The notes below the pieces were generated by a model. It made no database searches. It was not told where the DNA came from and saw only the letters and a program-made list of their open reading frames with translations. Shown piece by piece: positions 37,104 through 43,712 of a DNA stretch of 64,000 bases (position 1 is its first letter; each line of letters begins with the position of its first letter). The stretch lies in contig CAQPRV010000041.1 in NCBI GenBank assembly GCA_948857205.1, positions 9,313-73,312 on the forward strand, read 5' to 3'. Made by a program: the position numbers and the translations under genes. The stretch is from an uncultured Clostridia bacterium. Lineage in GTDB: Bacteria > Bacillota > Clostridia > TANB77 > CAG-508.

Positions 37104-37962
37104 TGTGAAAAAGGGATTATGCTTGGCAGGTGGAGGAGTAAAGGGAGCAGCTCATATAGGAGCTATTAAAGCTTTGGAAGAAGAAAATATTAAGTTTGAT
37201 TATGTTGGTGGAACGTCTTCTGGTAGTATTGTTTCTTGTTTATATGCAGTTGGGTACAGTGCAGATGAGATGTATGATATTTTTAAGAAGTATTGCAAAA
37301 AGATTAAATATGTTGATTTTATACAGATATTACGTCTTATTATAGGTCTTATTTTTACTGGTAAGATTAAGATTGAAGGTTTAAATTCTGGTAAGGAAAT
37401 TGAAAATTTAATTGATAAAGTGTGTAAAGATAAGAATATTTTTAATATATCTGATATTAAAATGCCATTAGTTATACCAAGTGTTGATTTATGCAATGGG
37501 AATGTTATTTGTTTTACTTCTTGTAAAAATAGAAATAATGTTTCTGATGATATTAAGTTTGAAAGTGATGTTAGTATAGGTAAAACTGTGAGAGGGAGTT
37601 GCAGTTATCCTGTTGTTTTTTGCCCTTGTAAGTTTAATAATACAAAGTTAATTGATGGTGGTGTAAGGGAGAATGTTCCTTGGAAAGAATTAAAGATGTT
37701 GGGTGCGTATTTTGTACTAAATATTATTTTTGATGATGATGAGAATTTAAATTGTAGTAAAAATTTGGTCGAGATTGCTAGTCGTTCTTTAAATTTAATT
37801 GGTAGAGAGTTGTCTAATTATGAACTTAATGGTTCTGATTATAATGTTAAGATTAAGAGTGAAAAGGTAGGCCTTTTGGATATGGATAAAATAGATGAAC
37901 TTTTTAATTTGGGCTATAAACAAATGAAACAAGAGATTAGTGTTATTAATAAGTTTTTGTAA
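37104..37962 (+). CDS. patatin-like phospholipase, copy 1
   Basis: GTG start gives canonical N-term (V)KKGLCLAGGGVKGAAHIGAIKALEE (Gly-rich oxyanion), GTSSGS (GxSxG nucleophile), …LIDGGVREN… (catalytic Asp region). The track ORF from ATG 37000 reads through the upstream repeat. Confidence 0.85.
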
Positions 37963-38150
37963 ATATATTTAAGTTAGTGTTTAGAAAAAAAGTAGTTTTA
38001 TTATAATTTATTTTAAAATAAAACAATTTAATAACATAATTGATAGAAAATTGTCAATGTGCTTTGAAAAATTTGAAAATATTTACTTTTTAAAAGATAA
38101 AAATAGTATTGAAATTTAAATATATATAGATATGAATTTTTAAAATAAAA

Positions 38151-38170
38151 AAGAGAGTACATACTCTCTT
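38151..38170. terminator. bidirectional hairpin between convergent patatin-1 and FGE/RCC1-1 (AAGAGAGTA…TACTCTCTT)
   Basis: Perfect 8-9-bp stem, A-run before and T-rich after. Confidence 0.45.
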
Positions 38171-38187
38171 AAATTATATATTTTTAT

Positions 38188-41600: not shown

Positions 41601-41631
41601 AGAAAAATTATATATTTGAGTGTAATATAAA

Positions 41632-41656
41632 ACAGAGGTCTCAGAAAAGCCTCTGT
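41632..41656. terminator. bidirectional hairpin (ACAGAGG-tctcagaaaag-CCTCTGT) between patatin-2 and FGE/RCC1-2
   Basis: 7-bp GC-containing stem, flanked by A/T runs. Confidence 0.5.
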
Positions 41657-41672
41657 TCTAAATATTTTATTG

Positions 41673-43712
41673 TCAATTAATATTTATCTTAATTGGTGTT
41701 GTCACTTCTTTGGTAGAGTCATTTCCTAACATTCCATTTTTTGTATTAAGACCACATACCCATACTTTTTCTTCTTCATCGATTGCTATAAAATAATGTC
41801 TTCCAACTGAAATTTTTTGTATTTTTTTTCCAATTGGAATTGAGATTGGTTTTATTGCTACTGGTGTTACGTTCTTATCAGTTCCTAATTGAGAGTATTT
41901 ATTTTCTCCCCATCCCCATAAAAATCCATTTGTATCTATTGCCATAGCAGTATATCCATGGGCAGAGATATCTTTAAATTTTTTATCTGGTGCAATTTGT
42001 TTTAGTTCAGTAACATTTTCAGATGTAGTATCGCCAATTCCTAATCTGCCTTTGTAATTAGAACCACAACCCCAAAGGTAACCATTCGTATCAATTGCAA
42101 AACTATTTTGTTGTCCTGCTGCAATTTTTTTAAATTTATTTGTTGTTTTTGTTACTTTTGTTGGAGTTTTCACTGAAGAAGTATTACCAGTACATAATTT
42201 ATTGTGAAAACCACTTCCCCAAGTGTAAAGATTATCATCTTTATCTAAAGCCATATTATAAAAATTACTGGCCGAGATTTCTTTAAATATAATATTAGAC
42301 GTGATTTTTGTTGGAGTTTTCACTGAAGAAGTATTACCAGTACCTAATCTGTAGTCAGCGCCAGAGCCCCATGCCCATAGATTACCATCTAAATCAATTG
42401 CTAAACAATGACTTTGCCCAGCTGATACTTTCTGGAATTTTACGTCAGTATTATTTAATTTAACAGTAATTTTTTGAAGAGAGGTTACTTTTGTAGTATT
42501 GCCAGTACCCAATTGACCAGAACCATTGCTTCCCCATGTATATAAAAACCCATCTACATCAATACCAACTGAAAAGCCACCATTAGAATCAGTACTTTTT
42601 GCGAGACCTCTTGAAAGTGAAATTTCTTTAAATTTTATCCTTGCATTTATATGTTTAGGCATTTTTTGAAGTGTAGTAGTACCATCTCCAAGTTCGCCAT
42701 TAGAATTTTTTCCCCACATCCATAGAGTTTTATTTTTATCAAGATAAGCAGTATGATTTGATCCACCAGCTACTACTAATGTTGTTTCAGGTATAGGATC
42801 AATATAATTAACATCTCTATATAATAAAACCCTAAAACCAGTATAAGAAAAAGTACTATTTGGTTTAGCATGATCTCTAGTACCAGCAGGTAAAACAGAA
42901 CCATTACTCAAAGCATCGCCACCTCTAACAACTGCATCATTACCATAGTTTTCAGTGGTCCACTCCCAAACATTACCAGCAATATCATAAATATTATTAG
43001 CTTTCTTTTCATCTTTACCAGCAATATGAATACTTCCATCAGAAGAATTTCTATAATTTCCCCAAGAGCTACTATCAGAATCAACATTATAATTTTTAGT
43101 TTTTAACCAAGTAAGCATAGTATCATAAGCATACGAACTTGCAAGAGAACTAATTACTTCTTTATTACTTTGATACATTTTTGTTGCACTAGCTTTGGCA
43201 TTATCCCTACTAATATTTGTCCATACAGTAGCATTTTTTTTACAAACAGGAACTCCAGCATTATTACCACTAGTAGAACCAACACCAGCTTCATACCTAC
43301 CAACATAAAATCCACCATATGTAGTTACACTAACATTAAAAGAAGGTTCTAATGGATCTTCTTGTGTAGAATTTGGATTAATAATAGAAAAGCTTTTAGA
43401 AAAGTTGCTTCTTTTTAGTTTAATATTATTACCATCTACAGGAACCCAAACAAATTCATTACCAGTAGCAGTTTCTTTAATAACAAATCCAGTATTCCAA
43501 GAGCCTTCAGTATGCATAAATCCTATAGGGGTATATGGATTATCATAAGAATACCCATTAGTTGCTTTTGCAATTTCTACAGTATTATTATTTTGTAGAG
43601 TTTGTGTACTAACAATTGTAAATATAATTGAACTTAATAATAAAATAGAAATAATAAGAATACTTACAATTATATATTTTAGTTTTCTTTTGTTTTTGAA
43701 AAAATTTAGCAT
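41673..43712 (-). CDS. signal-anchored FGE-sulfatase-domain + RCC1-repeat protein, copy 2
   Basis: Start at MLNFFKNKRKLKYIIVSI… (ATG 43710-43712, RBS AAAGGAGAA). Same FGE motifs (GNVWEWTTENYGNDAVVRGGDALSNGS…GFRVLLYRD). The RCC1 repeats are more diverged from copy 1 than the FGE part. Confidence 0.8.
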   Translation of the reverse strand: MLNFFKNKRKLKYIIVSILIISILLLSSIIFTIVSTQTLQNNNTVEIAKATNGYSYDNPYTPIGFMHTEGSWNTGFVIKETATGNEFVWVPVDGNNIKLKRSNFSKSFSIINPNSTQEDPLEPSFNVSVTTYGGFYVGRYEAGVGSTSGNNAGVPVCKKNATVWTNISRDNAKASATKMYQSNKEVISSLASSYAYDTMLTWLKTKNYNVDSDSSSWGNYRNSSDGSIHIAGKDEKKANNIYDIAGNVWEWTTENYGNDAVVRGGDALSNGSVLPAGTRDHAKPNSTFSYTGFRVLLYRDVNYIDPIPETTLVVAGGSNHTAYLDKNKTLWMWGKNSNGELGDGTTTLQKMPKHINARIKFKEISLSRGLAKSTDSNGGFSVGIDVDGFLYTWGSNGSGQLGTGNTTKVTSLQKITVKLNNTDVKFQKVSAGQSHCLAIDLDGNLWAWGSGADYRLGTGNTSSVKTPTKITSNIIFKEISASNFYNMALDKDDNLYTWGSGFHNKLCTGNTSSVKTPTKVTKTTNKFKKIAAGQQNSFAIDTNGYLWGCGSNYKGRLGIGDTTSENVTELKQIAPDKKFKDISAHGYTAMAIDTNGFLWGWGENKYSQLGTDKNVTPVAIKPISIPIGKKIQKISVGRHYFIAIDEEEKVWVCGLNTKNGMLGNDSTKEVTTPIKININ

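Follow-up and report, generated by a model that had tools for sequence, protein, structure and literature searches.

The 64,000-nucleotide stretch of an uncultured gut Clostridia chromosome that we analysed, here called the window (contig CAQPRV010000041.1; G+C content ~27%), contains two tandem DNA units of ~3.5 kb, at 37025-40543 and 40543-43960, that match each other with a BLAST E-value of 0. Each unit consists of a patatin gene convergent with a gene for a membrane-anchored protein that joins a module resembling the formylglycine-generating enzymes (FGEs) to an RCC1 propeller; we refer to the genes and their products as patatin-1 and -2 and FGE/RCC1-1 and -2. An earlier note, made from the letters of the DNA, had described two ~3.5-kb copies with this same convergent layout and had seen in them a fixed two-gene module with a possible role in defence. 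Both the open reading frames (ORFs) and the self-comparison of the DNA confirm the layout. Three of the four ORFs have the coordinates given there, the fourth, patatin-1, being in frame from a GTG at 37105 and not from 37104. What the locus represents is, we think, something else: probably a chromosomal segment that was duplicated in tandem in this lineage only, and not a two-gene system. The array is found in two further metagenome assemblies of the European Nucleotide Archive (ENA). A sequence from ERZ13410408 (L007) is 99.76% identical to window positions 38376-43301 and covers FGE/RCC1-1, patatin-2 and FGE/RCC1-2, and a 12.1-kb sequence from ERZ13410440 (L105) carries, in the same order as the window, the genes for DnaJ, patatin, FGE/RCC1, patatin and FGE/RCC1 and the start of a giant ORF. 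The features of the window are collected in Table 1.

Table 1. Annotated features of the 64,000-nucleotide window, in order of position
Feature	Position	Strand	Remarks
Chromosomal origin region	1-19500		gyrB, recF, dnaN, dnaA (-); yidC, jag, mnmE, mnmG, rsmG, parA, parB, DUF4446 (+)
Two tRNA genes	19209-19441		Rfam, gathering thresholds
Type IV secretion system (T4SS)-like cluster	20416-35905	+	~12 kb from oriC
T4SS_pilin matches	20416-21717 and 26897-29956		within T4SS-like cluster
TraG/VirB4-like ATPase	24916-26886		within T4SS-like cluster
Amidase/NlpC hydrolase, 1211 aa	30937-34572		within T4SS-like cluster
Palindromic repeat pair, REP-like	35904-36030		33-nt arms, 97% complementary
J-domain protein with C-terminal hydrophobic segment	36031-36723	-	Pfam DnaJ, 73 bits; synteny in L008-L011 and L095-L098
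Two repeat arms 5' of patatin-1	36775-36791 (+), 37035-37051 (-)		left edge of unit 1 (37025) in right arm
Patatin-1, 285 aa	37105-37962	+	GTG start; ancestral syntenic position beside DnaJ
Divergent core of unit 1	37925-39396		intergenic DNA between the stop codons and whole RCC1 part; 36-62% identical to unit 2
Terminator-like hairpin with T run	38151-38170	-	just 3' of FGE/RCC1-1 stop; consensus scan only
FGE/RCC1-1, 705 aa	38188-40305	-	anchor, nt 40201-40269; FGE-like module, ~39379-40134; RCC1 propeller, 38191-39378
Leader/promoter regions	40306-40400 and 43713-43805	-	AAAGGAG ribosome-binding site; also L001 1800-1894
Palindromic repeat pair, unit 1/unit 2 junction	40437-40571		
Patatin-2, 285 aa	40613-41470	+	
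FGE/RCC1-2, 679 aa	41673-43712	-	FGE-like module, ~42807-43541; RCC1 propeller, 41676-42806
Repeat arm(s), right edge of unit 2	43853-44015		
Giant surface adhesin ORF, >6577 aa	44268-64000	+	cut by window end; VWA domain, at least 21 SpaA domains

The two patatins are 90% identical over 285 aa, in line with the ~90% first estimated by eye. Both match positions 1-190 of the 191-position Pfam Patatin profile (PF01734; 111.9 and 114.5 bits, cut-off 27.7), and both copies contain GGGVKG, GTSSG and IDGG motifs. In patatins the oxyanion motif is GGGxxG and the nucleophile motif GxSxG, while the catalytic aspartate lies in DG[GA]. They have a single domain and no signal peptide, and between the copies the synonymous divergence (dS) is 0.29, the non-synonymous divergence (dN) 0.045 and dN/dS ~0.16 (Nei-Gojobori). 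Both copies are intact, and they are most likely ordinary cytoplasmic lipases, plain members of PF01734. They resemble the generic bacterial RssA/YlbK-type patatins in their full-length Pfam match, motifs, length of ~285 aa, single domain and lack of a signal peptide, but score far below the NCBIfam cut-offs that would make them equivalogs of RssA (66 bits, cut-off 272) or of CapV, for which the scores are given below. A further difference is that the window patatin is duplicated, whereas relatives carry one copy.

All 120 patatin homologues listed show 67-90% identity and a length of ~285 aa. We compared the surroundings of the gene in eight loci from relatives whose patatins are 83%, 81% and 78% identical (L008-L011, L095, L096-L098). 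The order there is a hydrolase, an ORF of ~440 aa, DnaJ on the minus strand and one patatin on the plus strand. The distal genes of the T4SS-like cluster (a 315-aa protein, the 1211-aa hydrolase and the ~440-aa protein, 438 aa in the window) keep their order together with DnaJ and patatin. Facing the patatin is a convergent gene for a 1440-aa BcrAD_BadFG/DUF2229 protein on the minus strand in L008-L010, L096 and L098; in L011, L095 and L097 the gene in this position is cut off or uncalled. None of the eight loci has an FGE-like module gene in the flanks of the patatin. The patatin is a conserved syntenic gene, single-copy in the relatives. The divergent J-domain gene/patatin pair (window 36031-37962) is kept in every relative examined, and two of them (L096 and L097) have two J-domain genes each.

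FGE/RCC1-1 and FGE/RCC1-2 are 55% identical overall; the N-terminal 310 aa are ~80% identical and the RCC1 parts ~41%, which agrees with the earlier observation that the FGE part is conserved and the RCC1 blades have diverged. Both begin with a basic stretch followed by a hydrophobic helix of ~23 residues. By the positive-inside rule this points to a signal anchor that would place the remaining protein outside the cell, and by this prediction only a tail of ~12 residues is left in the cytoplasm, nearly all of each protein being extracellular. The C-terminal part is a plain RCC1-like domain: WD40_RLD (PF25390) matches with 261.7 and 240.6 bits (cut-off 150) and RCC1 (PF00415) with 220 and 188 bits over 5-6 repeats, and from its length we estimate a propeller of seven blades. 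The order of anchor, FGE-like module and RCC1 propeller is found only in close relatives of the window proteins (P0001, P0002, P0004, P0241 and a frameshifted gene in L006). The fusion is a rare architecture, and a literature search for surface proteins combining FGE and RCC1 domains returned nothing relevant.

The ~250-residue module behind the anchor is only marginally recognized by the Pfam FGE-sulfatase profile (PF03781), which scores 16.2 bits for copy 1 and 24.1 bits for copy 2 against a cut-off of 23.3, over the C-terminal third alone; relatives score 17-44 bits. A profile built from 12 module sequences matches PorK/GldK, pFGE, TvpA and FGEs through the AGNxxEW...RGG...GFR region. An AlphaFold2 (AF2) model of the module, of moderate confidence (predicted TM-score 0.72, mean predicted local distance difference test score (pLDDT) 66), retrieves through Foldseek only proteins of the FGE/C-type-lectin class, namely PvdO, EgtB, PorK, CarF, TvpA and Mtd, the top matches having E-values of 1e-4 to 1e-2 and TM-scores of 0.3-0.5. 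Profile and model together support a distant FGE/C-type-lectin-fold domain. The domains first read from the translations were called correctly: patatin, RCC1 propeller, distant FGE-type fold and N-terminal anchor. The GNVWEWT and RGG motifs are likewise present as described. The 12-sequence alignment contains no invariant or near-invariant cysteine, the window sequence RGGDALSNGSVLPAGTRDHAKANSAFSYTGFRV has no cysteine, and both copies lack cysteine between RGG and GFR. With no conserved cysteine, the module is not a catalytic FGE. The earlier note had reached the same view by a different alignment, which does not stand: once placed with the RGG and GFR motifs as anchors, the stretch SAFSYTGFRV corresponds to the C-terminal ...GFRC motif of FGEs and not to the cysteine pair of CxxSYCxRYR.

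Non-catalytic proteins of this fold include PorK/GldK of the type IX secretion system (T9SS) ring, pFGE (SUMF2), TvpA of Treponema denticola (2Y3C) and PvdO. With these the window module shares the D-x-AGN-x-x-EW...RGG...GFR signature, the best profile and Foldseek matches, the absence of a catalytic cysteine pair and, as predicted for the window proteins, an extracytoplasmic location. The sequence similarity, however, extends over only ~55-90 residues (E 1e-5 to 1e-2). PorK/GldK serve the T9SS, and the host here is a Firmicute without one. Modules of the window family, for their part, can follow one another within a protein, and their fusion partners include RCC1, Ig-like and other domains. 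The module therefore belongs to the FGE/C-type-lectin fold class and is like its non-catalytic members, but falls in none of the PorK/GldK, pFGE and TvpA families. On the propeller side, the match of 241-262 bits is a likeness to bacterial surface proteins with RCC1 repeats (RLD), and in hundreds of bacterial homologues RCC1 is combined with secretion, Ig or adhesin domains; a signal anchor and an FGE-like module ahead of the propeller set the window proteins and their close relatives apart from these. We regard the fusion of anchor, FGE-like module and RCC1 propeller as a new variation on known kinds of surface protein, of which our literature search found no description.

The match to TvpA raised the question of whether the FGE/RCC1 proteins are variable proteins of a diversity-generating retroelement (DGR), a candidate that we reject. 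Differently from TvpA-like DGR targets, the locus has neither a reverse transcriptase nor a template repeat among the ORFs scanned, and the C-terminal part of the module is its most conserved one (92% identity between the copies over residues 251-300), while in such targets the lectin fold varies chiefly at its C-terminal end. The search for a reverse transcriptase domain found none in the window ORFs that it covered, those of 150 aa and more, and does not exclude two match-less ORFs at 20-24 kb.

Upstream of the FGE/RCC1 genes, ~90 nt 5' of the starts are nearly identical in three paralogues, the two window copies and one in another locus (L001), while their coding regions are only 70-80% identical. 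A repeat arm precedes this stretch, which could be either a promoter/leader under strong constraint or a gene-conversion tract. Scans for promoters and terminators performed no better than on shuffled sequences. In L001 one repeat arm also lies 5' of the paralogue (~1760-1790). The gene further 5' in that locus (20-1465) encodes repeats that look Flg_new/InlB-B-like by eye and a C-terminal domain GYWLASP...RPVVSL, and a similar stretch ends P0006.

The FGE-like module has a large family of its own, 4965 proteins at E <= 0.001, most of them without a Pfam annotation on record. In species-representative genomes we find at least 547 module loci, nearly all in uncultured gut Clostridia and often several per metagenome-assembled genome (MAG). 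In close relatives of the module (P0003, P0005, P0006 and P0080) two or three modules follow one another in the protein, and the C-terminal part is Ig-like or of another kind. Tandem arrays of 3-4 module paralogues are common (L027, 8142-13534; L039; L076; L012-L016); in L027 four stand in a row between spoIIIA and cysS. The N-termini carry signal anchors, lipoprotein-like signals or leaders of the KG[IV][ST]L[IV] type. Judged by its sequences, then, the family is large, multi-copy, modular and, by prediction, extracytoplasmic. Only 6 module loci were found among 2.9 million viral contigs, as against the at least 547 in genomes, and we reject an origin from phage receptor-binding proteins as the main context. 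In 48 of 97 family ORFs a K/R-G-[IV]-[ST]-L-[IV] leader stands before a long hydrophobic helix; it is prepilin-like, though without the glutamate at +5. A prepilin reading of these leaders was not confirmed by Pfam, as N_methyl matched none of the five family members tested, and no pilus machinery surrounds the L027 array, whose neighbours are spoIIIA, cysS and femAB. The window proteins themselves start with MLNFFKNKRKLKYIIVS and lack the KG[IV][ST]L motif, and a type IV pilin-like nature is rejected for them.

If patatin and FGE/RCC1 formed a fixed pair, as had been proposed, the two should travel together. We inspected the neighbourhoods of 78 module loci, the best of the at least 547 genome loci (1.14 Mb in total). 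A patatin lies within 10 kb of the module in one of them (L062), where the two genes share a strand, are 2.6 kb apart and are separated by rpsF and ssb. By our own estimate this is about the chance level if a small genome has one or two patatin genes. Taken with the eight patatin loci, none of which has a module gene, this leaves no co-occurrence of the two genes beyond one species. The gene-neighbourhood check set out beforehand thus found both that the pair does not recur elsewhere and that FGE/RCC1 belongs to a common surface-protein family meeting patatin only here, and a literature search for a patatin-FGE pairing yielded nothing relevant. Because they are together only in this species, patatin and FGE/RCC1 look like chance neighbours and not like a new two-gene system.

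Why, then, do the propellers differ so much between two otherwise similar units? Along the alignment of unit 1 with unit 2, DNA identity is 87-95% in the patatin gene, 36-62% in a central core and 65-91% in the FGE-like part, and it changes in steps, with a drop at the patatin stop codon and a rise precisely where the FGE-like and RCC1 domains join, near 39397. Between the copies, dS is 0.34 and dN 0.13 in the FGE-like part, and dS is ~1.0 and dN 0.51 in the RCC1 part (Nei-Gojobori). Similarity to other paralogues is discordant as well: P0241 has a module nearer to copy 1 (84% vs 77%) and a propeller nearer to copy 2 (64% vs 41%), and in P0004 the propeller is nearer to copy 2 (51% vs 41%) and the module equidistant from both. 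The high dS of the RCC1 part, the stepwise identity and the discordant similarities of module and propeller point to a mosaic segment. It is best explained, as far as sequence comparison goes, by recombination with another paralogue, in which the propeller segment would have been replaced, or else by gene conversion, which would have homogenised the flanks alone.

The earlier note had seen in the diverged blades the mark of diversifying selection on a ligand-binding face. On that account a single duplication was followed by positive selection on the propeller, with no recombination, and we consider it unlikely. The propeller is indeed the most diverged part of the proteins (41% identity, against 80% for the module and 90% for the patatins), and fast evolution is frequent in surface-exposed binding domains. 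Yet its dN/dS is ~0.5 and not above 1, and the flanks have a dS (0.29-0.34) only a third as high, a difference that selection at the protein level does not explain. Non-coding DNA differs in the same way: it is unalignable, with just ~50% identity, between the two stop codons, as against 75-95% in the leader 5' of FGE/RCC1, and neither the placing of the identity steps at the patatin stop and the domain junction nor the discordant similarities of P0241 and P0004 fit that account.

The gene beyond the array bears on what the FGE/RCC1 proteins may do. Divergent from FGE/RCC1-2 lies the giant adhesin ORF, with a signal peptide-like start and SpaA domains of the prealbumin fold; between 53743 and 58150 it is made of 11.5 tandem copies of a 381-bp unit (85% matches). 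Its first 900 aa are 33% identical (E ~1e-131) to the products of genes beside P0006 (L002) and beside the FGE-like gene of L006, and a giant VWA-SpaA adhesin is a recurring neighbour of FGE-like genes in the close clade (window, L002 and L006). At L006 (10001-12768) a gene for an anchor, two FGE-like modules and an RCC1 part is split over three reading frames in a Logan assembly, the result of either pseudogene decay or assembly errors. It belongs to a large island whose genes encode surface proteins of the Flg_new, SpaA, cohesin/dockerin and VWA kinds. Its position beside an adhesin means that both the FGE-RCC1 fusion and the adhesin neighbour occur without patatin. The recurrence of such adhesins beside close relatives makes the binding of ligands or glycans on the cell surface the most likely role, and the FGE/RCC1 proteins may be membrane-anchored extracellular binders, composed of a lectin-type module and a propeller, that possibly work with the adjacent adhesin. 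The arrangement recalls the VWA-SpaA adhesin islands of Gram-positive bacteria in that FGE/RCC1-2 adjoins a VWA/SpaA ORF of >6577 aa with homologues in L002 and L006. It departs from them in that FGE/RCC1 is anchored by an N-terminal helix and not by a sorting signal, and the link to the adhesin is one that we infer from three loci.

Against this background we weighed the proposal that patatin and FGE/RCC1 form a functional defence, abortive-infection or toxin module, in which the propeller would be the sensor and the lipase the effector, and which would have been copied and have diversified as one. Both genes were duplicated together and are kept in three assemblies, both patatins retain the catalytic motifs under purifying selection, and patatin folds do serve as defence effectors. 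PADLOC, too, gives the patatin matches of 76-80 bits, all to generic phospholipase-effector models. With NCBIfam, however, the patatin remains far below the cut-offs of CBASS_lipase (CapV; 59 vs 200 bits) and of the anti-phage phospholipase equivalog (34-38 vs 400 bits), FGE/RCC1 has no PADLOC match, and no signal-generating or sensor gene (CD-NTase or similar) is conserved beside the patatin, its neighbours being DnaJ and, differing among relatives, FGE/RCC1. The two genes are convergent and so do not form one operon, and prediction puts the two products on different sides of the membrane, the patatin having no signal peptide and FGE/RCC1 being extracellular. Together with the absence of the pair outside this species and from the papers searched, this leaves a defence or toxin module very improbable.

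Several points nevertheless weigh against our reading of the locus as a segmental duplication that holds unrelated neighbours. Both patatins are intact and under purifying selection (dN/dS ~0.16), and each stands beside one FGE/RCC1 copy in all three assemblies, as a selected pair would. The 78 neighbourhoods are not a random sample of the module loci, and the Nei-Gojobori method is crude at 27% G+C and at a dS near saturation. The association with the adhesin comes from three loci, among which the gene orientation differs, and the surface role leans on prediction, with an AF2 model whose mean pLDDT is 66. Since each propeller variant keeps its own intact patatin under purifying selection, it is conceivable that in this one species the pair recently became a working unit, in which a lipase is coupled to a surface receptor made variable by recombination. 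Homology arms for exchanging propeller cassettes would then be provided by the conserved flanks, which are the patatin on one side and the FGE-like module, near-identical leader and repeat arm on the other. We give this reading, its receptor and its cassette exchange taken jointly, a very slim chance.

A tandem segmental duplication remains the explanation that we favour, and the DNA around the units suggests how it may have come about. A palindromic repeat with the core CCATTGGGGACGGAGAA occurs seven times in the window, against 0.03 copies expected. All copies are intergenic, lying between 35.9 and 43.9 kb at only four intergenic spots of the window. They resemble repetitive extragenic palindromic (REP) sequences or miniature inverted-repeat transposable elements (MITEs), with arms of 28-33 nt that are 61-130 nt apart. 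The repeats bracket both units, as had been noticed before, and the unit edges fall inside repeat arms. The core is also present in a related species (L008, position 13230). At gathering thresholds, Rfam matches in the window are two tRNAs, none falling on the palindromic repeats, which are therefore not a known RNA family. We propose that unequal crossover between such dispersed repeats duplicated a 3.5-kb segment in which, by chance, an accessory gene for a surface protein had been inserted behind the syntenic patatin, and that later recombination among FGE/RCC1 paralogues would have replaced the propeller part. That the array is instead an assembly artefact, from collapsed or chimeric paralogues in the MAG, is next to impossible: repeats are at times mis-joined in MAG contigs and do flank the units, but the unit junctions recur in L007 and L105, from other ENA analyses, and copies that are at most 90% identical are easily assembled apart.

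The remainder of the window places the array on the chromosome. By its gene content the first part is the chromosomal replication origin region, and the sign of the GC skew changes near 8 kb. The T4SS-like cluster that follows had been taken for a flexible island. Its distal genes keep their order with DnaJ and patatin in related species (L008-L011, L095-L097), and the cluster seems to be a conserved part of the chromosome in this lineage, not a recent island. A megablast search of 36000-44200 against plasmid and phage collections returned no match, which gives no evidence of a known mobile element.

The candidate new defence or toxin system does not hold up, and effort on it can be spared. 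The locus illustrates clearly, on a small scale, that genes duplicated together can pass for a 'module'. The value of the analysis lies in this negative result and in its pointer to a large uncharacterised family of extracytoplasmic FGE/C-type-lectin-fold proteins in uncultured gut Clostridia. If the modules are lectin-like binders, they could bear on the attachment of these uncultured gut bacteria to mucus, food particles or other cells.

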